NCBI GenBank assembly: GCA_028717245.1
Contig: JAQUOD010000001.1
Location: forward strand, 85,514-149,513
Length of the DNA stretch: 64,000 nt
Origin: Candidatus Omnitrophota bacterium
GTDB lineage: Bacteria > Omnitrophota > Gorgyraeia > Gygaellales > Profunditerraquicolaceae
Direction: 5' to 3'
Part shown: positions 4,052-61,260 of the stretch, piece by piece
Layout of the letters: every line of letters starts with the position of its first letter
How positions within the stretch are numbered: the stretch's first letter is position 1
The notes under the pieces: model-generated
The model's database searches: none
Seen by the model: the letters and a program-made list of their open reading frames with translations, nothing else
Told to the model about the DNA's origin: nothing
Position numbers and translations under genes: made by a program

Positions 4052-4441
4052 TTATACTCTCCTTCTTTTTCTGGCACGGCATCCGTTATGAGGGATCGGC
4101 GTGACATCCCTGATTGAGACAACAGTCAGGCCCGCAGCCTGTAGCGCCCTGATTGCCGATTCCCTGCCTGAGCCAGGCCCTTTTACGTAGACCTCGATTT
4201 CTTTAATCCCGATTTCTTTGGCTTTTCTTGCCGCGTCGGTTGCAGCTATCTGGGCGGCAAAAGGCGTGGACTTTTTCGAACCGCTGTAACCTACGATACC
4301 GGGCGCCGACCAGACCAGGGCATTACCCTGTTTATCGGTTATGGTAATTATGGTATTATTGAAGCTTGCCTGTATATGGGCTATGCCGTTGGTTATGCCC
4401 TTTGCGATCTTTTTCTTTTTTGCCTTGTCCTTTACCGCCAT
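4052..4441 (-). CDS. rpsK: 30S ribosomal protein S11
   Basis: 129 aa, ...RKRRRV C-terminus. Confidence 0.9.
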
Positions 4442-10386: not shown

Positions 10387-10426
10387 TTATCCCCCACTTC
10401 GTTCTAATTAACTTGTTAACTGATTT

Positions 10427-10612
10427 TTACCAGCTTGCTTTTCTGACGCCGGGTATCAAACCCTGCCAGACTAACTCCCTAAAACAGATACGGCAGAGCT
10501 TAAACCTTCTCAAGTAACCGCCTGACCTGCCGCAAATAGAACAACGGTTATATTTGCGCGTAGAAAATTTTGGCGCCCTTTTCCATCTTGCTATTTGTGA
10601 ATTTTTAGCCAT
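10427..10612 (-). CDS. rpsN: 30S ribosomal protein S14 type Z (Zn-ribbon, 61 aa)
   Basis: [23 protein letters not shown]. Confidence 0.9.
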
Positions 10613-11504: not shown

Positions 11505-11541
11505 AATTACGAGTTACTAGTTACGAGCTTACGAGTTACTG
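11505..11541 (-). repeat. tandem heptamer array TTACGAG/TTACTAG x5 in rplN-rplX spacer
   Basis: aattacgag ttactag ttacgag c ttacgag ttactg. Confidence 0.8.
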
Positions 11542-16987: not shown

Positions 16988-18190
16988 TTAAGCAATAACT
17001 TCAGTTACTACGCCTGCGCCGACGGTACGCCCGCCTTCGCGTATGGCAAAACGTGATTCTTTTTCCATGGCAATAGGCGTGATTAACTCTATTTCTACAT
17101 TCACATTATCTCCGGGCATAACCATTTCTACGCCCTGCGGAAGAGTTACGCTTCCGGTAACGTCAGTGGTACGAAAATAGAACTGCGGCCTGTACCCCTT
17201 GAAGAAAGGAGTATGCCTTCCGCCTTCCTCTTTGGCTAATACGTAGACCTGGGCCTTAAATTTGGTATGGGGGGTAATGGATTTAGGTGCGGCTATAACC
17301 ATACCGCGCTCAATACCGTCTTTTTCGACACCCCTTAAGAGCAGCCCGACGTTATCGCCGGCCTGGCCTTCATCCAAAAGTTTCCTGAACATTTCAATGC
17401 CCGTGACTACTGTTTTCCTTACTTCTGGCCTTAAACCAACCAGTTCGACTTCATCGTTTAATTTGACTTTGCCGCGCTCGATTCTTCCTGTCCCGACCGT
17501 TCCTCTGCCTTCAATGCTAAATACATCTTCCACGGCCATAAGCAAAGGTTTGTCGAGATCTCTTACAGGAATGGGAATAAACTCATCCACTGCTTTCATC
17601 AAATCTAAAATAGGTTTAGCTTCAGGGCTATTTGGGTCATCTGTTGCCATTGCCTTTGAGGCGCTCCCTTTAATAATAGGTGTCTTGTCGCCGGGATAGC
17701 CATATTTTGTCAGCAGTTCCCTGACCTCCATTTCTACTAAATCAAGGAGCTCTTTGTCGGTAACCAAGTCCACCTTATTTAAAAATACTACCATTGACGG
17801 AACGTTTACCTGCCTTGCCAAAAGAATATGTTCTCTTGTCTGAGGCATGGGCCCGTCGGCTGCAGAAACAACGAGTATTGCCCCGTCCATCTGGGCTGCC
17901 CCCGTAATCATGTTTTTGATATAGTCGGCATGGCCCGGGCAATCTATATGGGCGTAGTGGCGCGCATCGGTTTCGTATTCAACGTGCGCAACCGAAATCG
18001 TAACTACTTTTGTTTCGTCCCTTACGGTACCGCCTTTGGCAATATCAGCATAATCTCTTGCAGTAGCCTTACCGAGTTTTGAGAGTACCTTTGTAATAGC
18101 TGCCGTTAACGTTGTCTTGCCATGGTCAATATGGCCTATGGTCCCGATATTTACGTGAGGCTTGCTCCTGACAAACTTTTCTTTAGCCAT
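16988..18190 (-). CDS. tuf: elongation factor Tu
   Basis: 400 aa, [10 protein letters not shown]. Confidence 0.95.
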
Positions 18191-18209: not shown

Positions 18210-20306
18210 TTAAAGAGTTTTCCTTGTCCCCGTAGTTGTAAAACCTGACTTTATCTTTTCTGCTATATGTGAAGGCACCTCAGCGTAAAACGAGGGCTCC
18301 ATTGTATAGGACGCCCGGCCTTGCGTTAAAGAACGCGATACGGTTGCGTAATTAAATACTTCTGCCAAGGGCACATAATTTCTGATTGTACGCACATTCC
18401 CGCGCACGGCAAGCGAGGTTATCTTTGCCCTCCGGGAATTTAAGTCGCCGATTATCTGCCCCATATATTCCTCCGGCACGACAATCTCCATGTCCATAAT
18501 CGGCTCTAATAAAATAGAATTTGCTTTCTTGAGGCCTTCATTAAAAGCGATTGCCCCGGCCATTTTAAAGGCCATCTCCGAAGAATCTACTTCATGGAAC
18601 GAACCGTCTATTAATTCCACTTTTACATCCGTAACCGGATAGCCCGCTAATACGCCGCTTTTAGCCGCGCCTAACACACCGTCTTCGACCGACGGGATAA
18701 ATTCTCTAGGGATAGCGCCGCTCCTTATTTTATTCTCAAAGGTTATCCCGGCACCGGGCATCTCCTGGGGCGACATCTCCAAGACCGCATGTCCGTATTG
18801 TCCGTGGCCACCGCTTTGTTGGATAAATTTTCCCGTTGAGATTACCTTTTTAGTAATAGTTTCGCGATAGGCAACCTGGGGTAAACCTACCTGTGCCTCC
18901 ACACTAAATTCGCGTAATATTCGGTCGATAACTATCTCTAAATGTAACTGGCCCATTCCTGAAATAATGGTCTGCCCTGTTTCGTGATTATAGGTTACGC
19001 GAAAAGAAGGGTCCTCTTCCGCTAATTTATGTAAAGCCATGCCCATTTTTTCCTGGTCTTGTTTAGTTTTGGGTTCTACTGCCTGCTGGATTACCGGTTC
19101 GGGAAAACGCATTGCTTCAATAAGTATGGGGTTAGCCTCCTCGCAAAGCGTGTCCCCTGTTTTAGTCTCTTTTAATCCCGCAACCGCAGCAATATCGCCG
19201 GTAGAAATGTTGTCTACGACCTCTTGGCGGTTAGCATGCATAAACATTAATTTTGTAATGCGTTCCCTGGTCCTGCGCGAGGCATTATAAATATAAGACC
19301 CGGAATTCAGGACTCCGGAGTATACCCGCAGGTAATTAATCCTCCCTACATAAGGATCCACCATTACCTTAAAGCATAAAGCGCAGAAGGGCGCTTCGTC
19401 TGAGGCAGCTATCTCCTCGTGCTCCCGCGTTTCCGGCTCCATACCCTTTATCGGCGGTAAATCCAGAGGCGAAGGCAGATAATCGCAGATGGCATCCAAA
19501 AGCATCTGCATGCCTTTGTTCCTTAAAGAGGAGCCGCACAAAACCGGGATAAACTTATCCTCAATAACCTTTCTCCTTATCGTTTCTTTTATCAAGGCCG
19601 CAGTTATTTCTTTATTCTGTACGTAATAACTCATTATCGTATCGTCTACCTCTGCCAATTTTTCCAGCAGTATGTGGTGGTATTTATCTAATTCAGCCAA
19701 TTTGTCAGCGGGCACATCCATAATATCGAACTCTCTGCCTGCGTCGTCTTTATATACGATTAGTTTTTTTTCTATGATATCAATAATACCTTTAAAATTT
19801 TCTTCCTGGCCAAAAGGCAGCTGTATCGCGGCAGCGTTTGCCCCTAATTTTTTATGTATTTCTTCAATAGTGCCGAAAAAGTTGCTTCCGATACGGTCCA
19901 TTTTATTTACGAAGGCGATCTTGGGCACGCCGTAACGCTCAGCCTGGCGCCAGACTGTCTCTGACTGCGGCTCAACCCCGCCCACTCCGCAGAAAACAAT
20001 TACTGCCCCATCCAGCACCTTCAGGGACCTTTCGACCTCTACGGTAAAATCAACATGCCCGGGGGTATCAATGATATTGATGCGAAAGTCATTCCAGTTA
20101 CAGGTAGTACAGGCAGCAGTAATAGTAATGCCCCTTTCCTGTTCCTGGACCATCCAGTCCATAGTAGCAGTGCCTTCGTCTACCTCTCCGATTTTATAGG
20201 TCTTGCCCGTAAAATAAAGTATGCGTTCGGTAGTGGTAGTCTTACCCGCATCAATATGGGCGATAATACCGATATTTCTAAGTTTAGTTAAAGATTTTTC
20301 TTTCAT
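18210..20306 (-). CDS. fusA: elongation factor G
   Basis: ORF-track N-terminus is an extension; [24 protein letters not shown] start at 20306, 13 nt after rpsG stop. Confidence 0.9.
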
Positions 20307-25204: not shown

Positions 25205-28200
25205 TTATTTGTCCTTGTCCATATGCACATCCAGGCCTAACCCCTGGAGTTCTTTTATCAAGACATTAAATGATTCGGGCGTGCCATGGGTCAACCTCTG
25301 CTCTCCCTTGACAATTGCCTCGTATATACGAGTCCTTCCTGAGACATCGTCGCTTTTTACGGTAAGCATCTCCTGTAAGGTAAATGCCGCCCCGTATGCC
25401 TCTAATGCCCAGACTTCCATTTCTCCTAATCTTTGGCCGCCAAACTGGGCCTTGCCGCCCAAAGGCTGCTGTGTAACCAAAGAATAAGGCCCGATGGAAC
25501 GGGCGTGGATCTTTTCATCTACCAGATGAATCAGTTTCATCATATAGATATAACCTACAGTGACCTTCTGGTCAAAAGGCTCGCCGTTAAATCCGTCGTA
25601 AAGGGTTATTTTGCCGTCTTCGGGTAAGCCCGCTTTTTTCAACATTTCTTTAATTTCTGCTTCTGTGGCACCGTCAAATACCGGAGTGGTCACCGCAAGG
25701 CCCAAGGCCTTGGCTGCCCAGCCCAGATGCGTCTCCAGGATTTGCCCTACATTCATACGGGAGGGGACGCCCAGGGGGTTTAATACTATATCAATAGGCG
25801 TGCCGTCGGGTAAATAAGGCATGTCCTGCTCGGGGACTATTTTTGCCACTACCCCTTTATTGCCGTGCCTGCCGGCTAATTTATCGCCTTCGGAAAGCTT
25901 GCGCTTTGTGGCAATATAAACCACTACCCTTTTTAAAACCCCGGGCGGCAATTCATCGCCGCGTCTGACCTTTTCTATTTCCTGTTCCTGTTCGGCTAAT
26001 AGTTTTTGTATCTGCTCGTCGAATGAAGAAGCCAGAATTTTTGCCTCTTCATTATTAGTAAAATCCATGGTCTCTATTTTTCTTTTATCTACGCCTAAAA
26101 CCTGGCTCAGGCGCGCTGTTTTTTCGGTCTGTATAAAATCCATTTCCTGTTTATAGTAAGCCTTTAGTTCCCGGATTTTTGCCAATTCCTTGGTCTTATC
26201 TTCCTTGGATTTCCTGCCTCTTTCTTTACGCTGGAAGATGTGTACGTCTATAACTACGCCTTCTACGCCCGGCGGAACGGTTAAAGAAGTATCGCGTACA
26301 TCCCCGGCCTTTTCGCCGAATATGGCGCGTAGGAGCCTCTCTTCCGGAGAAAGCTCTGACTCGGTCTTGGGCGTAACTTTGCCTACCAGGATATCCCCTG
26401 AAGCTACTTCTGCGCCGATACGGATTATACCTGTTTCGTCTAAGTTGTTTAAAGATTCTTCGCTGACATTGGGGATATCGCGGGTTATCTCTTCGTTACC
26501 CAGGCGCGTTTCAGTGGCTTCTGTTTCAAATTTTTCTACGTGTATAGAAGTAAAGGCGTCTTCTTTAGTCACCTTTTCGCTGACCAGGATAGCATCTTCA
26601 AAATTATACCCTCGCCAGGGCATAAAGGCGCAGAGTAAATTCTTTCCCAGCGCCAATTCCCCATTTTTTGTAGCTGTGCCGTCGGCAATGACCTCGCCTT
26701 TTTCGACATGCTGGCCCGGTTTTACCAGCGGCCTTTGATTTAAACAGGTATCTGCGTTTGTACGCAAAAATTTATTAAGGTGATATGTCTTTTTACCTAT
26801 AGTTATGGTTGAAGCATCGACATAGGCCACCTTGCCTGATTCCGCGGCTACTATTACAGTGCCCGAATCAACGGCAACCTTCTTCTCCATGAATGTCCCT
26901 ACGATAGGCGCCTCAGTAATCATTAATGGCACAGCCTGTCTTTGCATATTTGAACCCATCAATGCGCGGTTAGCATCATCATGTTCCAGGAAAGGGATTA
27001 AAGAAGCAGCAACGGAAACCAGCTGTTTTGGGGAGACGTCCATATATTCCACGCGCTTAGGGCTGACTTTGGGAAAATCGCCTTTATAGCGGCAGGATAT
27101 TTCGCGTTCTAAGAAATGCCCTTCGTCGTCTATGGGGACGTTCGCCTGGGCGATTACCTTTTCTTCCTCAATATCCGCGGTTAAATATTCAATCTTACGC
27201 GTAACCCGGCCCTCTTCTGCCTTACGATATGGCGTCTCCAGTAATCCCAGGGGATTTACCCGGGCATAAGTACTCAGAGAGGCGATCAAGCCGATATTCG
27301 GGCCTTCAGGGGTTTCAATGGGGCAAACCCTGCCATAGTGCGAAGGGTGTATATCCCTGACTTCAAACCCGGCGCGTTCCCGGGATAACCCGCCGGGGCC
27401 TAAGGCGCTAAGCCTGCGTTTATGGGTCATCTCAGCCAGAGGATTTACCTGGTCCATAAATTGCGAGAGCTGGCTGCGCATAAAGAAATCGCGGATCTGG
27501 TTAGATAATAGCTTGGAATTTATCAGGTAATGCACGCTTATGTTGTCAAAATCGCCCAATATGCTTAATCTCTCGCGTATCGAACGTTCGATCCTGCTTA
27601 GGCCTATCCTTACCTGGTTCTGCACTAATTCGCCGATAGTCTTGACGCGGCGGTTGCCCAAATGGTCTATATCGTCAATTTTTCCCTGGCCGTCTTTTAA
27701 TTTAATCAAGTATTCTATTACCTTAATAATAGTAGCCGAATCAAGGATCCTTTTTTCTAAAGCTACGTCCATGCCTAATTTTCTGTTTAAGATAAACCTG
27801 CCCGCCCTTTCTAAATCGTACCTGTTGGGGTCAAAGAATAAGCGGTAGAATAAGGCCTCAGCTGCTTCTTTAGTAATCGGCTCAGTCGGCCGCATCTTGC
27901 GATAAAAATCTAAATAAGCCTCTTCTTTATTTTTGGTATAGTCTTTCTTTAAGGTATTGGTTATCTCCGGATACTCATGGCCGAAGGCCGCAATAATCTC
28001 CTGGTCGGTGGAAAAACCGAGTATCCTTAATATCTGGGTGGCGGGAAAATTTCTGCGCCTGTCTACATAAGCAAGGATGGTTTCGGATAAGTCATATTTA
28101 AACTCAAGCCATGCCCCGCGGTAAGGGATAACCCGGCCGTGGAATATCTTTTTGCCGGTAGGATGGCTTTCTTCTTCAAAGGAAACTCCCGGAGAACGCT

Positions 28201-28609
28201 GCAATTGGCTGACTACTACGCGTTCATCGCCGTTTATGATAAATGTACCGGTTTCTGTCATTAAAGGTATTTCGCCGAAGTAGGCATCCTGTTCTTTGAT
28301 TTCTTTGGGGGTAGTCAACCTGAACTTTACCTTTAAAGGTGCAGCGTAGCTTAATGCCCGGCGCTTGGATTCGGCAATATCATATTTGGGTTTCCCGAGA
28401 GAATAACTGATAAATTCCAGCCTCACTGTGCGGCTTGCGTTTTCTATCGGGAATATATCCAGGAATACCTCCTGTAATCCCTGATGTTTTTTTTCGCGGG
28501 AGGGAATATCTATCTGCAGAAATTCACAGTAAGATTCAAGCTGGATATCAAGAAGATTAGGCAGGCCGTAATATTCCTTAAATTTTGCAAAGTTTTTATG
28601 TTTAAGCAT
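25205..28609 (-). CDS. rpoB: DNA-directed RNA polymerase subunit beta (compact, 1134 aa)
   Basis: [10 protein letters not shown]... rpoB; 2-nt gap to rpoC. Confidence 0.95.
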
Positions 28610-28620
28610 ATTGTCTATCA

Positions 28621-28722
28621 GGTTACGTAAGGTTGCCTAAGGTTACGTAAGGTTCCATAAAGCTGCCTTTTTTAAGGTAACCTTATGTAACGTTATGGAA
28701 CCCCATGGAACGTTAGGTAACA
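28621..28722 (-). repeat. inverted arrays of 10-mers GGTTNNNTAA forming a ~45-bp imperfect hairpin in rplL-rpoB spacer
   Basis: ggttacgtaa ggttgcctaa ggttacgtaa ggttccataa ... ggtaacctta tgtaacgtta tggaacccca tggaacgtta ggtaac. Confidence 0.8.
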
Positions 28723-28729
28723 TTTCTTA

Positions 28730-29122
28730 TTATTTTAATTCTACCGTTGCCCCGGCGGCTTCCAATTTTTTCTTCATCTCCTCAGCCTCTTCCTTAGCTA
28801 CGTTTTCCTTTACGGGCTTGGGAGCTGCGTCTACTAAGTCCTTTGCTTCTTTTAGGCCGAGGCTGGTCATTGTCCTCACTTCTTTTATTACCGCAATCTT
28901 ATTGGCACCTGCGCTAGCCAAAACTACGGTAAAGGTACTTTTTTCTTCCGGCGCTGCGGCAGCGGCCCCTGCAGCAGCCCCCCCGGCAGCTGGTGCCGCC
29001 ATAATCGGCATATTCGCCTGCACGCCGAACTTCTCCTCCAAGGCCTTCACTAAATCCGATAGCTCTAATACGCTCATCTCCTCTATGGATTTAATCAGCC
29101 CTTCCATATTTTCTTTAGCCAT
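28730..29122 (-). CDS. rplL: 50S ribosomal protein L7/L12
   Basis: 130 aa. Confidence 0.9.
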
Positions 29123-29149
29123 TTTATGAACCTCCTTTTAGACAAGTTT

Positions 29150-29221
29150 GTATCAAAGTATCAGGTATCAAGGTATCAAAGTTTTTTCTTTGACACTTTT
29201 GACACATTGATACTTTGACAC
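29150..29221 (-). repeat. GTATCAA/TTGACAC inverted octamer arrays (hairpin, loop ttttttc) in rplJ-rplL spacer, directly upstream of rplL RBS
   Basis: gtatcaaagtatcaggtatcaaggtatcaaag-ttttttc-tttgacacttttgacacattgatactttgacac. Confidence 0.85.
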
Positions 29222-29225
29222 TATT

Positions 29226-29753
29226 TTAGTTTTCTTTCTTCTTCTTTATCTGCTCTAAACAATAAACTAATTTTCTTAAATTCCCCTTAAGAACCATTAC
29301 TAAACCAAAGATAGGTGATTTTAAAGCCATTACAGCCTGATATCTCAAAATTTCCTTACAGGGAAGCCGGGCCATCCTTTCGATATCTTTTTTATCCAGG
29401 ATCTTGTCTTCTAAAAATCCTGCTTCTAATTTTAACTGTTCATGCTCACGGAAAAAGCCATATAACACGCGCGAGGTATCTACTGGTTCTTCTTTGGCAA
29501 ATACTAAACCGCAGGGCCCCTCTACGGACTTAATTAAACCTTCTAAACCGGAGTCTTTCAGGGCGCGCCTGGCTACGCTATTTTTGGTCACGAAGAGCTT
29601 GGCCTTTGCGCCTTTTAGCGATTTCCTCAGGGTAGTCAGATCCGGACTGGATAATTTCGAATATCCCACGATAAAAAGGCCCTGCGATTCCTTAAAATAT
29701 TTTTTAAGGCGGTTTTCCAGAGTTTCCCTGAATACTAAACCCAGTTTTTTCAT
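29226..29753 (-). CDS. rplJ: 50S ribosomal protein L10
   Basis: 175 aa. Confidence 0.9.
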   Translation of the reverse strand: MKKLGLVFRETLENRLKKYFKESQGLFIVGYSKLSSPDLTTLRKSLKGAKAKLFVTKNSVARRALKDSGLEGLIKSVEGPCGLVFAKEEPVDTSRVLYGFFREHEQLKLEAGFLEDKILDKKDIERMARLPCKEILRYQAVMALKSPIFGLVMVLKGNLRKLVYCLEQIKKKKEN

Positions 29754-31963: not shown

Positions 31964-32035
31964 AGTGTCAAGGTGTCAAAGTATCAGAGTGTCAAAGTAA
32001 AACTTTGATACCTTGATACATGATACTTTGATACA
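31964..32035 (-). repeat. GTGTCAA/TTGATAC inverted octamer arrays (hairpin) between rpmG and tRNA-Thr
   Basis: gtgtcaaggtgtcaaagtatcagagtgtcaaag-taaaac-tttgataccttgatacatgatactttgatac. Confidence 0.85.
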
Positions 32036-33362: not shown

Positions 33363-34300
33363 CTGTATGCGAGCATGGTTGCCTCAATTAATGATGCGGG
33401 ATTGGCCAACCGGTAGTTTTTTGCGATATCAAAGGCAGTCCCGTGTAAAGGAGATGTTCTGATAAAAGGAATGCCCAATGTCAAATTTACACCGCTAAAG
33501 CCGGCTGATACCTTCAAAGGGATTAATGCCTGGTCGTGATACATGGCAATCATGCAGTCGTATTGTTTTTGCAGTGTTTTTAAGGCTGCTATATCCGCCC
33601 CCTGCGGCCCGGCTATGCTTATGCCTTTTATTTTTTTTCTTAAAAGCGACAGAACAGGTTTAATCACCCTATTTTCTTCCTTTCCTATCAGCCCATTATC
33701 AGAGGCGTGCGGATTAAGCCCGCACAATACGATGCGCGGGTTTCTTGTACGGAAGAGTTTTTTTAAGGATTCATAAGTTAAAATTACGGTTTGAAATATT
33801 GCTTTTTTGCTTAAGCATAGGGGGACGTCTTTTAAAGCAATGTGGCGCGTAACCAGGGTGATTTTTAATTTTTTATTTAAAAGCATCATGGCAAAATTTT
33901 TCGTATTTGTAACAGAGGCCAAATATTCCGTATGCCCGCTGAAATTTTTAAACCCCGCCAAACTCACTGCCTCCTTGGATATAGGGCAGGTAACCAGAGA
34001 ATCTATCTTGTTATGATTAATTAAATCCATTGCCTTATCCAGGTATTCTATGGATGCCTTGCCATATTCAGCCCGCATTTCACCGAATCTAAAATTTTTA
34101 CGTGCTACATTATTTAAATCTATAAATTTTATATCTGACACCTGACACCTGGCACCTGACACCTGATTAAATACCCACCTATCTCCTATGATAACAAAAT
34201 CAGCCAAACCTCTTAATTGAGGTATTGCTTTAGCGATAATAGCAGGGCCTACACCCGCCGGGTCGCCTATGGTAATGCCGATTTTTATTTTATTATGCAT
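33335..34300 (-). CDS. pdxA: 4-hydroxythreonine-4-phosphate dehydrogenase
   Basis: IGITIGDPAGVGP..., HTEY, synteny surA-pdxA-rsmA. Confidence 0.9.
   Translation of the reverse strand: MHNKIKIGITIGDPAGVGPAIIAKAIPQLRGLADFVIIGDRWVFNQVSGARCQVSDIKFIDLNNVARKNFRFGEMRAEYGKASIEYLDKAMDLINHNKIDSLVTCPISKEAVSLAGFKNFSGHTEYLASVTNTKNFAMMLLNKKLKITLVTRHIALKDVPLCLSKKAIFQTVILTYESLKKLFRTRNPRIVLCGLNPHASDNGLIGKEENRVIKPVLSLLRKKIKGISIAGPQGADIAALKTLQKQYDCMIAMYHDQALIPLKVSAGFSGVNLTLGIPFIRTSPLHGTAFDIAKNYRLANPASLIEATMLAYRCTLNQKKD
34135..34165 (-). repeat. in-frame tandem heptamer tract CACCTGA/CACCTGG x4 inside pdxA (encodes periodic QVSGARCQVS)
   Basis: ctgacacctgacacctggcacctgacacctg. Confidence 0.8.
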
Positions 34301-34310
34301 TTATTTGTTT

Positions 34311-34392
34311 CCGTAATCCGTAATTGGTAATTCGTAATTCTTATTTTATTTTAAAAAATTACGATTTACGATTTATGAATTACGATTTACGG
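34311..34392 (-). repeat. inverted heptamer arrays CCGTAAT x4 / ATTTACG x5 (hairpin) in pdxA-surA spacer
   Basis: ccgtaatccgtaattggtaattcgtaatt ... aattacgatttacgatttatgaattacgatttacgg. Confidence 0.85.
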
Positions 34393-34417: not shown

Positions 34418-35365
34418 TTAATCTTGCATAATTTTAATATAAGACTGCTTTTTGAGTTCGTCCAACCACGTTGCTAATGCCTCTTGCATCTTTTGGTCAA
34501 AAAGGAAGGTATAAATATCACCCTGGGCCCCAGAGATACTTTGCTGCCGGGGGGGTATTATATTATCCAGTTTAAAAATATAATATTGTTCTTCTATTTT
34601 GACCGGTGCGGAGATTTCACCTACCTTCAACCTGAATATTTTTTCTTCGATGTCTTTTCTCAACTGCCCATTCCCTGCCCCGCTCATTTTATTTACAGCC
34701 AGGAAATATTTACTGGCGACATCCTGAAATTCCTGCCCATTCCTTAAATCATTAAAGACTTTGCTCGCCAGGTCCTCTTCACCGGTATTTATGGATTCAA
34801 ATTCGCGCTGTTCGGGTAGTTTAAATTTATCGATGTTTTGCTGATAGAAATCGGTGACTTCTGCGGGATTAACCAGAATCTTGCTCTTTATCTTTATTTC
34901 GATAATAGTATACATAAGCAGCTGGTCTCTTATCTTTGATTCTAAGTCTGCCTGCACCAGCCCTTGCTTAGCCAGGGAAGTTTGAAAATCCTTCTCTGAA
35001 TCGTAACGCCTGCGGATATCGTCTATCCTAGCTTTGATCCTGCTCTCGTCTATTCTGATATTGCTTTTTTTGGCTTCCTGTAAAATAATGCGGTCTTCAA
35101 TAAGCTTGTCCATTAAATCCAGCTTTATAGATTGCATTTTACTTTCCAGGCTTCTCCCTTTAAATTCTCCCATTAATTGTACGCGCGTAAAATTAACGAA
35201 GTCGTCTAAGTCTTTCTGGGTGATGACATCGTTATTCACGATAGCGACGATTTTGTCTTCGGCGTGTAAGTTGTAAGCTGTAAGTTGTAAGCTGTAAGCA
35301 ATGGAAAAAAGCAAAAATAATGATATTTTTAAACCCTTTAACCCTTGGTTTTTGATTTTATCCAT
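34418..35365 (-). CDS. surA: SurA-like periplasmic chaperone/peptidyl-prolyl isomerase (signal peptide, short form)
   Basis: 315 aa, N-terminal signal peptide; position upstream of pdxA-rsmA as in E. coli. Confidence 0.6.
   Translation of the reverse strand: MDKIKNQGLKGLKISLFLLFSIAYSLQLTAYNLHAEDKIVAIVNNDVITQKDLDDFVNFTRVQLMGEFKGRSLESKMQSIKLDLMDKLIEDRIILQEAKKSNIRIDESRIKARIDDIRRRYDSEKDFQTSLAKQGLVQADLESKIRDQLLMYTIIEIKIKSKILVNPAEVTDFYQQNIDKFKLPEQREFESINTGEEDLASKVFNDLRNGQEFQDVASKYFLAVNKMSGAGNGQLRKDIEEKIFRLKVGEISAPVKIEEQYYIFKLDNIIPPRQQSISGAQGDIYTFLFDQKMQEALATWLDELKKQSYIKIMQD
35264..35299 (-). repeat. in-frame tandem heptamer tract (C/T)TGTAAG x5 inside surA signal-peptide region (encodes AYSLQLTAYNLH)
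   Basis: gtgtaag ttgtaag ctgtaag ttgtaag ctgtaag c. Confidence 0.8.
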
Positions 35366-40034: not shown

Positions 40035-40062
40035 TTCGTTAGCCTCCTTTTTAGATACGTTT

Positions 40063-40125
40063 GTATCAAAGTGTCAGGTATCAGGGTATCAAAGTTTTTT
40101 CTTTGATACTTTGATACTTTGACAC
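40063..40125 (-). repeat. GTATCAA/TTGATAC inverted octamer arrays (hairpin, loop ttttttc), paralogue of the 29150-29221 element; abuts trpE stop and rpsP RBS
   Basis: gtatcaaagtgtcaggtatcagggtatcaaag-ttttttc-tttgatactttgatactttgacac. Confidence 0.85.
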
Positions 40126-41612
40126 TATTTAACAATTGCCTCTATTAATGCCTTTGCCTTGTTTATAGATTCCTGGTATTCATTTTTTGGCACCGAATCA
40201 GCGACGATACCGGCACCTGCCTGAATATATGCCATCCCATCTTTAATAATTACGGTCCGAAGGGTTATGCAGGTATCCATATTATGCGAAAAGCTGAAAT
40301 ACCCTACGCATCCGGCATAGGGCCCGCGCCTTAAATTTTCCAGCTCGTCTATAATTTCCATAGCGCGTATCTTAGGGCTGCCGCTTACTGTCCCGGCGGG
40401 AAAACAGGCCCTTAAAACATCGTAGATATTATATCTCTTATCCAAAATACCCTCAACTTCACTGACTATATGCATTACGTGGGAGTATCTTTCTATGGAC
40501 ATAAACTCACTCACCGCTACCTTGCCTTTTTTACAGACCTTGCCTAAATCATTCCTGCCTAAATCTACCAGCATCAGGTGTTCTGCGCGTTCTTTCTTAT
40601 CTTCAAGAAGCTCCTTTTCTAATTGCTTGTCTTCTTTTTCATTTTTCCCGCGGGGCCGGGTACCGGCAATAGGCCGGGTGCGGGCAATGCCGTCTTCACA
40701 GCGTACCAGTATCTCAGGAGAAGAGCCGACTAAGGTAACTTCCTTTAATTTCAAAAAAAACATATAGGGAGAAGGGTTCAGGCTCCTTAAATCCCTGTAG
40801 ATATCGAAGGGGTCTTTATCTATCTTTATTTCAAAGCGCTGCGACAATACTGTCTGGATGATATCCCCCTTTTTTATATAATCCCTCGCCTTATTTACTA
40901 TTTTACAAAATTCCTTTTCTTTAAAGTTAGAAATTACTTTTATGCTGCGCTTACCAGTATCATTACGCTTTGCTTTCTTGAGCAAGGGTTTCTTCAGTTC
41001 ATTGCATATGGAATCTATTTTTTTCAGCGCCTGATAATAAATCTGCGTTTTTTTAACCCGGGGGATTTTTTTATGCGCCGGCAGGATAATGTTAACAATG
41101 ATCTTTATGGTATGGTTAATATGGTCAAAGACTAGGATGCTATCGGTAAGTATAAAGACGGAATCGGCGATCTTTAGGTCATCCGGATTTCTATCGGGCA
41201 GGTCCTCAAAGAACCTTACCATATCATAAGCCATGAAACCCACGAGCCCTCCGTAAAAGCGCGGTAGTTCTTTAATCCGGGCGGCCTTAAAATCCTGCAT
41301 GATTTTTTTAATTTCATCCAGGGGGTCATTGCGGGTAACAAAATGCCTGGCTGAACTTCTTGCAGGATAAATGACCCGGACATCCCTGCCTTTACTTCTA
41401 AAAATAAGCGCGGGGTTACTCCCTAAGAAAGAATAGCGGGCGATCTTTTCCTGTCCTTCTACGGACTCAAGGAGAAAGGCATAATCGCCTTTTTTTATTT
41501 TTAAGAAGGCAGACACAGGCGTATCTAAATCCGCGCTGATCTCCTGATAAACCGGAATAAGATTATATTTTTTAGATAGTTCCAGAAATTCTTTTAGTGA
41601 TGGATAGTACAT
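40125..41612 (-). CDS. trpE: anthranilate synthase component I
   Basis: TPVSAFLKI, LLESVEGQEKIARYSF motif. Confidence 0.8.
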   Translation of the reverse strand: MYYPSLKEFLELSKKYNLIPVYQEISADLDTPVSAFLKIKKGDYAFLLESVEGQEKIARYSFLGSNPALIFRSKGRDVRVIYPARSSARHFVTRNDPLDEIKKIMQDFKAARIKELPRFYGGLVGFMAYDMVRFFEDLPDRNPDDLKIADSVFILTDSILVFDHINHTIKIIVNIILPAHKKIPRVKKTQIYYQALKKIDSICNELKKPLLKKAKRNDTGKRSIKVISNFKEKEFCKIVNKARDYIKKGDIIQTVLSQRFEIKIDKDPFDIYRDLRSLNPSPYMFFLKLKEVTLVGSSPEILVRCEDGIARTRPIAGTRPRGKNEKEDKQLEKELLEDKKERAEHLMLVDLGRNDLGKVCKKGKVAVSEFMSIERYSHVMHIVSEVEGILDKRYNIYDVLRACFPAGTVSGSPKIRAMEIIDELENLRRGPYAGCVGYFSFSHNMDTCITLRTVIIKDGMAYIQAGAGIVADSVPKNEYQESINKAKALIEAIVK

Positions 41613-41622
41613 ATTGGGCTTT

Positions 41623-41676
41623 GAGCTTTAAGTTGTAAGCCATAAGCTTAAAGCTTAGAGCTTACAGCTTATAGTC
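41623..41676 (-). repeat. heptamer array AGCTTAN (consecutive agcttaa agcttag agcttac agcttat) with inverted partner; overlaps hisI stop codon
   Basis: gagctttaagttgtaagccataagcttaaagcttagagcttacagcttatag. Confidence 0.85.
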
Positions 41677-44010: not shown

Positions 44011-44639
44011 AATTCTACAAAATTTTTCAGTATTTTTAAACCGGTTTCCTGGCTTTTCTCAGGATGAAACTGCACGCCGTATATATTCTCCCGCCAAAGA
44101 ACCGGGCTAAAGCTAATCCCGTATTCAGTAGTAGCAGCGATGATATCTTTATCCTTGGGTTGCGGATAATAGGAATGGCAGAAATATACGTAAGCATTAT
44201 CCGGTATATCTTTTAACAGGGGGCATTCCTTTGACACCTTGACACCCTGACACCTTGATACTATTTTCAACTGGTTCCAGCCCATATGCGGGACCTTCAA
44301 ATTGCCTTTAATTTTAAATTTCTTTACCTCGCCTTTTAATATCCCTAATCCTTTTATCCCTTTTGCTTCATCGCTTCTCTCAAAGAGAAGCTGCATCCCT
44401 AAACAGATACCCAGAAATATCTTTTTTGCCTTAATATGCTCCTTTAGCGCCGTCAACAGATCCTGTTTCTTTAATTCTGCTACAGCATCGGCGAATGCCC
44501 CTACCCCCGGCAATACTACCTTATCACAAACCTTGATATCTGCGGGCTTGTTGGTAACTATTGTCTTTGCGCCCATAGACTCTAAGGCCTTTTGCACGCT
44601 ATGAATATTTCCCATGCCGTAGTCAATTATGGCAATCAT
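44004..44639 (-). CDS. hisH: imidazole glycerol phosphate synthase glutaminase subunit
   Basis: MIAIIDYGMGNIHSV..., GICLGMQ, HSY. Confidence 0.9.
   Translation of the reverse strand: MIAIIDYGMGNIHSVQKALESMGAKTIVTNKPADIKVCDKVVLPGVGAFADAVAELKKQDLLTALKEHIKAKKIFLGICLGMQLLFERSDEAKGIKGLGILKGEVKKFKIKGNLKVPHMGWNQLKIVSRCQGVKVSKECPLLKDIPDNAYVYFCHSYYPQPKDKDIIAATTEYGISFSPVLWRENIYGVQFHPEKSQETGLKILKNFVELC
44229..44262 (-). repeat. in-frame octamer tract TTGACACC x3 inside hisH (encodes SRCQGVKVSKE; about 9-aa insertion relative to HisH homologs)
   Basis: ctttgacaccttgacaccctgacaccttgatactatttt. Confidence 0.8.
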
Positions 44640-46482: not shown

Positions 46483-49097
46483 TTTAGTTCCCTGATAATC
46501 TCTTTAAGTTTCTTGAATGCCTGCGGAAAATTCTCCGGTTTATTTCCCCCTGCCTGGGCAAAATCCTTCCTGCCTCCGCCGCTACCGCCGATTTCCGGGG
46601 CGATTGCTTTTATTATCTTAGCGCTATCAATATCTAAAATTTGCGTATTTAAATTTGTACCCGTAACCAACAGGGCCCCTCCAACGGAAGTAGTTGTCCC
46701 TAAGGCAACGATAACGCTTTTTTCCTTCGCTTTGATTAAATCCACGGCCTTTCTTAAGGCGTCCATATCCTGGCCTTCAATAAAACGGGCGATAACATTA
46801 ATACCGTTAATAATTTCTCCCTCTTTAATATAATTATCTATTGAGGCTCTAAGCATATCCGTCTTGCGGTAACTTAGCTTTTTTTCCAGTTCTTTTATCT
46901 GAAATAGCTTCTTCTCTAATTCCTGGGTTATCTTTTGGCTAGGGACATTTAAAAGAGAAGAAATATCAGCCAGGATATTCTCTTCTTCCTTAAGCGCCTT
47001 ATAGGCACAATCTCCTGTAAGCGCTTCTATCCTTCTTATCCCGCTGGCTATCGACCCCTCGTTAACTATCTTAAAGAGCCCGATTTGGCCGGTGCATTCA
47101 AGGTGTGTTCCGCCGCAGAGTTCTTTAGAGAAATCTCCGATTGCTACCATACGCACCTTTTCTGCGTATTTCTCCGTAAAGAATGCCAATGCCCCTTGTC
47201 TTTTAGCCTCTGCGAGGGTCAGCGTCTTTGCCTTCAAGCACGTATTATTTACTATGTAGTTATTGACTAATCCTTCTATTCTATCCAACTGTTCCCTAGT
47301 CACATCCTTAAAATGCGTAAAGTCAAAACGTAATCTATCTTCGGCTACTAATGAACCTTGCTGTTGCACATGCGCTCCCAAAATTACGCGTAATGCTGCC
47401 TGCAATAGGTGTGTGGCAGTATGATTTCTGGCTATGGATAGCCTGCGTTTAATATCCACACAGGACATTAACTCATCTGTGGTTCTAAAACTTCCGGTTT
47501 TTACCCTTCCTTTATGCACAATAACATTATCAAATTTACGGGTACCGGTTATCTGAAAGACATTCTTCCCTTTTATCAATTCACCCGTATCGCCTACCTG
47601 GCCGCCGGATTCAGGGTAAAGAACGGTTTTATCTAAAATTATCCGGGCCTCTTCGCCCGCGCTTATTTTTTTTACCGGAGTATTATCTTTAATAATCTTG
47701 ATAACCTTTGCCTTTGTCTCGTATTTGGAGTAACCCAGAAAACTAGTCTTAGCGCCTGCTAAATGCAATTCTTTAATATCAAAGACATCGCCTTTCATCC
47801 GACTCTGTAATTTAGAACGGTTTTTCTGCTCTCCTAATTCCTTATCAAATGCCTCCTGCGAGAAATTTATGCCGGCTTTCTCCAGCCAACCCCTGGTTAA
47901 CTCTAAAGGTATCCCGTAGGTATCGTACAACTGAAAGGCAAGCCTGCCGGCCCTTTGCGCGTCCTGCTTATTACTAAAACCCTTAAATTTTTCTTCAAAC
48001 AAAACGCTGCTAGAATCTAAAGTAGAAATAAAATTATTCTCTTCAGCCAGAATAATCTGGGAGATATTTTCTTTACGTTTATCCAACTCTGGATATGGCA
48101 ACTTCATAATATCGGATAAAAGAGGGGTTAATTTATAAAGAAAAGGTTTAGCTATCCCTAACGCCCTTAAATGCAGCATGCTTTTACGGATTATTTTTCT
48201 TACTACATACCCGCGGCCTTCATTAGAAGGCAATACGCCATCATAAATAGCAAAAACAATGGCACGTATATGGTCACTAACAGCATAAATAAATTCCTTA
48301 TCTGACACTTTGACACTTTGACACTTTGACACTATCTCTTTCACTATGGGTTGGAATAAATCCGTTTCAAAATTATTCGGCACCCCCTGCATAACCGCTG
48401 CCAATCTTTCCAGCCCCATACCCGTGTCAATATTCTTTTTGGGTAAAGGTTCTAATTTTCCGTCTGCTTTGCGGTTAAATTGTGTAAACACTAAATTCCA
48501 TATTTCCGGGAACCTGCCGCAACTGCAAGCCGGGCCGCAGCCAGGCTTCCCGCAACCTGCGCCCTGGTCAAAGAATATCTCAGAACATGGCCCGCATGGC
48601 CCATTTGGGCCGTTAGCTTTGGCTTCTGATGGCCAGAAATTTTCTTTATCGCCTAATTTTACGATTTTATTTACCGGAACCTTTATTTTATCTTTCCATA
48701 TGTTATACGATTCATCATCGTCTTTATATACAGAAACCCAGAGTTTATCTTCTTTAATCTTAAGCTCTTCGGTCAGGAACTCCCACGCCCAGGTAATTGC
48801 CTCTTCCTTAAAATAGTCCCCGAAAGAAAAATTTCCCAGCATCTCAAAAAAGGTATGGTGAGACGGGGTCTTGCCTACCTTATCTAAATCATCGGTGCGC
48901 AGGCAGCGCTGGCTGCTGGCAGCGCGGCTAAAACCGGTTAAATGCCCCAGGAATTGCCTCTTGAATTGGTTCATTCCGGCAGGAGTAAATAATACGGTAG
49001 GGTCGTCCTTGGGGATAAGCGAATCGCTTTCTACGATTTTATGCTTTTTAGCTTTAAAAAAGATGGGGAATTTTTCTCTTAATAAATCCGCTTTCAT
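46479..49097 (-). CDS. alaS: alanine--tRNA ligase
   Basis: start MKADLLREKF at 49097 overlapping recX stop (ATGA..TAA); ORF-track start 49154 is an extension. Confidence 0.9.
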   Translation of the reverse strand: MKADLLREKFPIFFKAKKHKIVESDSLIPKDDPTVLFTPAGMNQFKRQFLGHLTGFSRAASSQRCLRTDDLDKVGKTPSHHTFFEMLGNFSFGDYFKEEAITWAWEFLTEELKIKEDKLWVSVYKDDDESYNIWKDKIKVPVNKIVKLGDKENFWPSEAKANGPNGPCGPCSEIFFDQGAGCGKPGCGPACSCGRFPEIWNLVFTQFNRKADGKLEPLPKKNIDTGMGLERLAAVMQGVPNNFETDLFQPIVKEIVSKCQSVKVSDKEFIYAVSDHIRAIVFAIYDGVLPSNEGRGYVVRKIIRKSMLHLRALGIAKPFLYKLTPLLSDIMKLPYPELDKRKENISQIILAEENNFISTLDSSSVLFEEKFKGFSNKQDAQRAGRLAFQLYDTYGIPLELTRGWLEKAGINFSQEAFDKELGEQKNRSKLQSRMKGDVFDIKELHLAGAKTSFLGYSKYETKAKVIKIIKDNTPVKKISAGEEARIILDKTVLYPESGGQVGDTGELIKGKNVFQITGTRKFDNVIVHKGRVKTGSFRTTDELMSCVDIKRRLSIARNHTATHLLQAALRVILGAHVQQQGSLVAEDRLRFDFTHFKDVTREQLDRIEGLVNNYIVNNTCLKAKTLTLAEAKRQGALAFFTEKYAEKVRMVAIGDFSKELCGGTHLECTGQIGLFKIVNEGSIASGIRRIEALTGDCAYKALKEEENILADISSLLNVPSQKITQELEKKLFQIKELEKKLSYRKTDMLRASIDNYIKEGEIINGINVIARFIEGQDMDALRKAVDLIKAKEKSVIVALGTTTSVGGALLVTGTNLNTQILDIDSAKIIKAIAPEIGGSGGGRKDFAQAGGNKPENFPQAFKKLKEIIRELK
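48302..48333 (-). repeat. in-frame octamer tract TTGACACT x4 inside alaS (encodes SKCQSVKVSDKE)
   Basis: ctgacactttgacactttgacactttgacact. Confidence 0.8.
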
Positions 49098-61224: not shown

Positions 61225-61260
61225 CGGCTTATAGCTTACAACTTATGGCTTACGGCTATT
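61225..61260 (-). repeat. tandem heptamer array (G/A)GCTTA(T/C) x5 overlapping glgC stop codon
   Basis: cggcttat agcttac aacttat ggcttac ggctatt. Confidence 0.8.

Follow-up and report, generated by a model that had tools for sequence, protein, structure and literature searches.

The window analysed here, a stretch of 64,000 nt numbered 1-64000, covers the str, S10, spc and rplKAJL-rpoBC clusters. In the last of these, the spacer between rplL and rpoB (28610-28729, 120 nt) holds a long hairpin. The two genes have rplJ and rpoC on either side, and all genes around the hairpin are on the minus strand. The features of the spacer and its neighbours are as follows.

28730..29122, minus strand: rplL (L7/L12), upstream of the hairpin, with Pfam matches to Ribosomal_L12 and L12_N
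28622..28721, minus strand (sense): 10-mer array hairpin, about ten in-phase copies of STTACSTAAC, with a 39-bp imperfect stem
28643..28723, minus strand: 26-codon open reading frame (MLPNVPWGSITLHKVTLKKAALWNLT, then a stop), starting 6 nt past the rplL stop codon, spanning the 5' arm and the loop, and ending within the 3' arm
25205..28609, minus strand: rpoB, downstream of the hairpin, with six Rpb2 domain matches

The rplL stop codon (TAA, 28732-28730) lies 8 nt ahead of the stem, and the rpoB ATG (28609-28607) lies 12 nt past it. No Shine-Dalgarno sequence is recognisable for rpoB at 28595-28625 (minus strand), or at the rpoB starts of the related lineages L162, L167, L171 and L087; rpoB of this clade differs in this from rplL and rpsP, each of which has a strong AAGGAGG site. 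The 26-codon reading frame over the hairpin is probably fortuitous, and nothing comparable was found among the other elements examined, although its position might allow it to pass ribosomes on to rpoB.

Read on the sense strand, the array keeps an unbroken 10-nt phase over 102 nt: GTTACCTAAC GTTCCATGGG GTTCCATAAC GTTACATAAG GTTACCTTAA AAAAGGCAGC TTTATGGAAC CTTACGTAAC CTTAGGCAAC CTTACGTAAC. The unit is itself nearly palindromic (GTTAC|GTAAC), which makes the array self-complementary and hence a hairpin, so that "two inverted arrays" and "one array of a palindromic unit" describe the same thing. The 10-nt phase continues across what appears as the hairpin loop, and the axis of the hairpin is a unit boundary. 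Tandem Repeats Finder (TRF) reports two period-10 arrays, at 28620-28654 (3.5 copies, AGGTTACGTA) and 28677-28721 (4.5 copies), and a repeat finder gives 40-nt arms at 28622-28661 and 28672-28711 with 73% complementarity. Positions 2-3 (TT), 5 (C) and 8-9 (AA) of the unit are conserved, while positions 4, 6 and 10 vary in both arms. No mirrored (compensatory) variation is seen between the arms; with variants thus unmirrored, the stem has a single-nucleotide mismatch every 3-9 bp and carries no compensatory signal.

The predicted fold of the sense RNA has 39 base pairs, of which 13 are G-C, joining a 5' arm at 28721-28674 to a 3' arm at 28669-28622 around an AAAA loop (28673-28670) that lies within a run of AAAAAA. 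At -32.8 kcal/mol (z -3.76), this fold was matched in stability by no sequence among 200 dinucleotide shuffles. The sense strand folds in nearly a single register (33.8 of 37.7 expected pairs), while pairing of the antisense strand is spread over registers 10 nt apart. The initial annotation, which had placed a 102-nt 10-mer hairpin in this spacer and proposed folding both strands, is thus borne out by TRF, the repeat finder and the fold alike, the antisense strand being the one that slips between registers; its estimate of about 45 bp was slightly generous. Set against the near-continuous duplex of at least some 20 bp that marks an RNase III substrate, the predicted 39-bp duplex is interrupted at each of its single-nucleotide mismatches. 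The stem is followed by CCUGAUAGACAAUAUG, with the tail CCUGAUAGACAAU, and the U-tract that had been reported missing is indeed absent: a terminator scan of 28300-29400 returned no sites, and the G+C-rich stem with an adjoining U run that marks an intrinsic terminator is not seen.

A sigma-70 promoter scan around the hairpin gave one chance-level match, at the end of rplL, and a promoter reading of the TTGACA and TTGATA units was rejected on account of their unfitting spacing to any -10-like hexamer. An integron attC site was likewise rejected: there is one GTTAGGT/ACCTAAC match, but the genes are core housekeeping genes and not cassettes. In Rfam 15 the spacer belongs to no family, the matches at E <= 10 being chance-level ones to microRNA precursors alone; across the whole window at gathering thresholds, Rfam identified two tRNAs alone and no ribosomal-protein leader (L10, L1 or others). 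The hairpin is not an assembly artefact, since an independent Logan short-read assembly (L081) shows no difference from rplL through the spacer into the beginning of rpoB. This identical sequence is also the sole homologue of the spacer that we found.

The rplL-rpoB array is far from the only one in the window, where TRF, with runs of three or more copies counted, finds 16 arrays whose period is 7, 8 or 10, against 0.02 expected (the mean of 50 third-order Markov simulations); a stricter periodicity scorer gave four. At least five unit families with periods of 7, 8 and 10 coexist in these 64 kb, and several of the arrays are inverted pairs with strongly significant folds. The rplL-rpoB array belongs with them, as a 7-10-nt unit repeated head to tail three times or more in a class far commoner than chance, and its 10-mer family is present in a single copy in the window. 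The other arrays at gene junctions are listed here.

29150..29221, minus strand: E1, rplJ-rplL junction, a hairpin of (TGTCAAAG)x4 - AAAAAA - (CTTTGATAC)x4; -37.8 kcal/mol, z -8.5
40042..40126, minus strand: E2, trpE-rpsP junction, a paralogue of E1 including its AAATAG lead-in and A6 loop, with the tail AAACGTATCTAAAAAGGAGG; z -6.8
31964..32034, plus strand: E3, tRNA-rpmG junction, of the 8-mer family of E1 and E2; z -4.3
34312..34391, minus strand: inverted 7-mer arrays (CGTAAAT)x5 ... (AATTACG)x4 at the junction of a surA-like gene and pdxA; z -5.2
41629..41676, minus strand: 7-mer array, near-palindromic CTNTAAG/CTTANAG, at the end of hisI and overlapping its stop codon
42766..42817, minus strand: 7-mer array CTWTAAG/CTTAYAG, running from the TAG stop of a peptidoglycan-binding-domain gene, upstream of hisF
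11507..11539, minus strand: direct 7-mer array of TAACTCG type at the rplN-rplX junction, with a unit akin to that in the hairpin arms of the L174 rplL-rpoB spacer
61225..61257, minus strand: direct 7-mer array CCGTAAG CCATAAG TTGTAAG CTATAAG, running from the TAG stop of a nucleotidyl-transferase gene

E1, E2 and E3, though situated at three unrelated junctions, can be aligned from end to end, and E3 has the opposite orientation to E1 and E2 relative to transcription. An ATAG lead-in is common to all three. In E1 and E2 this is an AAATAG lead-in, and the two also have in common the tail AAACNTRTCTAAAAGGAGG, which provides the following gene with its ribosome-binding site; in the case of E1, the sequence that follows, AAACTTGTCTAAAAGGAGG, is the site of rplL. 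One 8-mer recurs at six separate loci, and A6 loops recur in different unit families. The antisense strand folds at least as stably as the sense strand in five of the six window hairpins, so selection on the sense RNA is unsupported. A G-U pair strand test was mixed in the window (sense favoured in one of six), while the sense strand was the more stable in most cases from other phyla, and we therefore do not count this test as evidence.

Arrays of these same units are also found within coding sequences.

48303..48333, minus strand: TGTCAAAG x4, perfect, in frame in alaS, encoding ..VSKCQSVKVS..
44231..44258, minus strand: (TRTCARGG)x3.5, in frame in hisH
34135..34166, minus strand: (GTGTCAG)x4.6, in a variable loop of pdxA
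35265..35299, minus strand: (GCTTACA)x5, in the N-terminal region of the surA-like gene

In all four genes, only the orientation free of stop codons is used. The alaS array lies in a variable segment and brings no net change in length relative to the E. coli alanyl-tRNA synthetase, and in pdxA, too, a variable segment has been replaced with its length kept; the hisH array is a nine-residue insertion relative to solved HisH structures. Like E1, E2 and E3, the alaS and hisH arrays are preceded by ATAG. At the N-terminal site of the surA-like gene, the relatives L167-L170 carry a different 7-mer array, of TTCGTCC (4369-4401; 4326-4358 in L169). The presence of unrelated units, GCTTACA and TTCGTCC, at one site in two species suggests that this region is a recurrent hot spot for arrays.

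We gathered close relatives by exact-protein look-ups and compared the rplL-rpoB spacer in lineages with 77-90% identical RplL, sampling 14 related lineages. Four of the 14, including three of the nearest, have short spacers without a fold (18 nt in L167-170, 23 nt in L162, 25 nt in L087 and 34 nt in L171-173; RplL identity 78-90%). In the other ten the spacer is expanded, while most other junctions of the cluster are 30 nt or less. The inserts of the other lineages are mutually non-homologous.

L174: rplL-rpoB spacer of 159 nt, 7-mer periodic hairpin
L175: 98 nt, plain hairpin with an A6 loop
L082/L083: 130 nt, direct GTAAG 10-mer arrays
Other longer, unrelated spacers: L178, 102 nt; L165, 112 nt; L180, 188 nt; L084, 106 nt; L001, 73 nt; L003, 51 nt

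A clear gain in stability over shuffles is confined to the spacers of the window, L174 and L175, and those of L003 and L082 are marginal. With ten of 14 spacers expanded and three to five of those ten significantly structured, there may be some positive selection for structure at this junction. The spacer comparison nonetheless indicates that the rplL-rpoB hairpin is not a conserved attenuator.

Turnover of such elements can be followed among near-identical strains. L167 and L169 have identical RplL and flanks that are 99.9% identical, yet their rplJ-rplL hairpins differ, being an 8-mer GTRTCA hairpin in L167 and a 10-mer GGTTA hairpin with an A6 loop in L169; the two sequences (L167:9889-10000 and L169:9846-10000) are wholly different from the last ten or so codons of rplJ to the start of rplL, the ribosome-binding site included. 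An insert-bearing junction also differs between L171 and L172, and between L178 and L179, each pair with identical RplL. Across about 1.7 Mb of loci, GTRTCA arrays turned up nowhere but in the window and in three Omnitrophota relatives, L167, L168 and L170.

Other insert families were observed in the relatives. L174 has structured inserts of 150-160 nt at rplL-rpoB, rpoC-rpsL, rpsL-rpsG and rpsG-fusA (10395-10540, 17980-18139, 18506-18669 and 19135-19292), the first of them built of TTACTAG units like the window array at 11507-11539. A second, G+C-rich family of palindromes, with the core GGGGACTGTCCCC or similar, is found at junctions of Omnitrophota relatives (L167:17824-17937 and 18307-18397; L162:8695-8772; L180:3081-3274; L178:10391-10492; L003:2769-2819), often followed by AAGATAAG or GATAAG just ahead of the next start codon.

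Taken together, these observations place the rplL-rpoB hairpin in a class of short-period arrays that is spread genome-wide in this Omnitrophota lineage. The initial annotation had put it forward as a candidate attenuation or RNase processing structure, but a dedicated regulatory device sits poorly with the short foldless spacers of relatives, the non-homologous inserts of other lineages and the arrays found elsewhere, including those in coding sequences and those in inverted orientation. We instead favor, at a probability of roughly 0.55, a lineage-specific DNA-level repeat element with fast turnover that was not purpose-built as a regulator. Six observations lead us to prefer a DNA-level repeat over a regulator: the continuity of phase, the bidirectional paralogues, the copies inside genes, the replacement at strain level, the absence from close relatives and the lack of compensation between the arms. 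An unbroken 10-nt phase across the loop is expected if a palindromic unit expanded in place. The element might have arisen, and might be maintained, by slipped-strand expansion of a self-complementary 10-mer, by short-patch recombination or insertion, or by both, and arrays of 7-, 8- and 10-nt units would settle where they are tolerated, at gene junctions and in variable protein loops.

The rplKAJL-rpoBC message most likely includes the array, to judge from the position of rplL and rpoB on the same strand, only 120 nt apart, and from the absence of a terminator signature between them. Folding would then loop out about 100 nt, so that outside the stem some 20 nt (flanks of 8 and 12 nt) separate the rplL stop from the rpoB start, a distance resembling the 18-34-nt spacers of relatives that have no element. 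Intrinsic termination at the hairpin is unlikely. Its effect would be one of punctuation in a polycistronic mRNA, where the duplex could act as a barrier to 3' exonucleases, as a substrate for RNase III or as both. By analogy with REP/BIME, ERIC and Correia elements, a role as decay barrier or RNase III target is the one that we find most plausible, and either would make the abundant rplL message independent of rpoBC in its stability. Some observations count against the reading that we favor. Slippage alone leaves unaccounted for the presence of one 8-mer at six loci and the length-neutral replacements in alaS and pdxA, the 10-mer family has only its single copy within 64 kb, and the antisense folds lend no support to selection acting on the sense RNA.

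The possibility that the hairpin is after all a dedicated, non-canonical attenuator or RNase processing site, selected here to set the ratio of ribosomal protein to RNA polymerase, seems to us unlikely, despite a position that is suggestive. The E. coli rplL-rpoB spacer contains an attenuator (PMC4670729), as the initial annotation had stated, and a passage of PMC2777011 that cites Barry et al. 1980 places an RNase III processing site there as well. The window hairpin occupies the same rplKAJL-rpoBC junction, where a structured RNA, predicted in our case, divides a ribosomal gene of high expression from the polymerase genes. It is stable and its sense strand keeps to one register, the ten expanded spacers stand out against the short junctions elsewhere in the cluster, and the L174 and L175 hairpins at this site are significantly stable also. 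The likeness to the E. coli site does not extend to homology in sequence or structure, however: the window hairpin is built of tandem 10-mers, lacks a U-tract and is absent in close relatives. Selection for a dedicated site would also have to accommodate four related lineages with foldless spacers of 18-34 nt, inserts that are not homologous between lineages, arms without mirrored variation, and like elements at unrelated junctions and within coding sequences. A looser role in punctuating the message at the RNA level is still reasonable by comparison with other bacteria, given that E. coli has its attenuator and RNase III site at this junction and that a long spacer is the bacterial norm here, with a median of 167 nt over 114 loci from many phyla.

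Two further alternatives concern the DNA itself. The elements might have been inserted ready-made, as non-autonomous elements of MITE or REPIN type, by a transposase that recognises the unit, instead of growing in place. E1, E2 and E3 are indeed paralogues over their whole length, dispersed over unrelated sites in either orientation and with a common ATAG lead-in that also precedes the alaS and hisH arrays, and the presence of elements varies among near-identical strains. On the other hand, no target-site duplication is visible at the borders, nor a terminal inverted repeat separate from the units, no transposase was found in the window, the difference between L167 and L169 reaches into rplJ in the manner of a recombination patch and not of a clean insertion, and the rplL-rpoB array is in phase throughout, as fits growth in place; we consider such an origin quite improbable. 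Less probable still, in our judgment, is a double-stranded DNA array to which a dimeric protein would bind, its some ten palindromic decamers each one helical turn from the next. Regulators of the OmpR/PhoB type bind tandem 10-11-bp sites, and ribbon-helix-helix proteins bind heptad and metbox arrays of 7-8 bp. The 10-bp period does equal the helical repeat of B-DNA, and the conservation of positions 2-3, 5 and 8-9 against unmirrored change at 4, 6 and 10 is the pattern that a contact motif would give. Yet several proteins would be needed for at least five unit families of periods 7, 8 and 10, the sites lie within operons and coding sequences and not at promoters, the A-rich central loops suggest a fold of the single strand, and we identified no candidate binding protein.

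Among known repeats, the nearest in habit are the REP/BIME, ERIC and Correia/NEMIS families, co-transcribed intergenic palindromes with reported effects on the stability of mRNA, on attenuation or on cleavage by RNase III (PMC2229807, PMC3733652). The window elements resemble them as imperfect palindromes at junctions within operons, in dispersed families that occur in either orientation and vary between strains, but differ in having arms of four to five tandem 7-10-nt units, several unit families in one genome and no transposase seen in the window. A REP or BIME is a 20-40-bp palindrome with a GTAG/CGTC head and many copies, whereas the rplL-rpoB hairpin has no such tag, periodic arms of 48 nt and one 10-mer copy in 64 kb. 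Rickettsia palindromic elements are non-periodic and 100-150 nt long, unlike the in-gene copies of the window, which are single-direction arrays of 28-35 nt. These Rickettsia elements lie between genes and are also fused in frame into conserved protein genes (PMC2229807), as the window arrays are in alaS, hisH, pdxA and the surA-like gene. The TAACTGA heptamers of Beggiatoaceae and the STRR of cyanobacteria are abundant between genes, including those of ribosomal protein operons, and occasionally occur in open reading frames; they are direct repeats just upstream of starts, with one inverted case reported (PMC4679880). The TAACTCG/TAACTAG array at 11507-11539 resembles the TAACTGA unit, and the rplL-rpoB element, as a tandem array of short period, falls within this general type, differing in that its 10-mer array is self-complementary and forms a long hairpin. 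In a full-text literature search we found no account of such arrays in Omnitrophota.

Taken alone, the hairpin between rplL and rpoB is of little weight, and it is no conserved control of RNA polymerase synthesis. What matters is the class: short units arrayed into long hairpins at operon junctions, variable between strains whose flanks are 99.9% identical, with the same units found in frame within conserved enzymes. This points to an active and as yet unexplained repeat-generating process in this Omnitrophota lineage, and the arrays would be a source of ready-made RNA structures between cistrons. One could go further and suppose that hairpins with arms of tandem 7-10-nt units form a distinct, undescribed class, written by a sequence-specific process of repeat writing or patch conversion that also writes units into coding sequences, and used as modular punctuation between cistrons. 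We regard this as a tentative and rather doubtful extension. It would take in the Omnitrophota together with look-alikes around rplL in Acidobacteriota, Gemmatimonadota and other phyla, and some of the punctuating copies, E1 and E2, would bring their own ribosome-binding site.

Hairpins of tandem 7-10-nt units were indeed observed near rplL between genes of other phyla, with a unit that differs from genome to genome. In the Acidobacteriota L048, GTAATTGG/CCAATTAC units are found in five successive spacers, and the unit in the Gemmatimonadales L074 is GAGTGCGT. The look-alikes with periodic arms are located as follows.

L048: 349-3646
L074: 4361-4426 and 12006-12088
L103: 11180-11266
L056: 309-399
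L146: 707-790
L090: look-alike also present
L105: 1111-1227

Such similar architectures near rplL suggest that the phenomenon is broader than one lineage. On the practical side, arrays of this kind can pass for regulatory RNAs, and they may also break assemblies, as suggested by the short-read contig L081, which ends (positions 1-30) within the 8-mer array of the rplJ-rplL junction.
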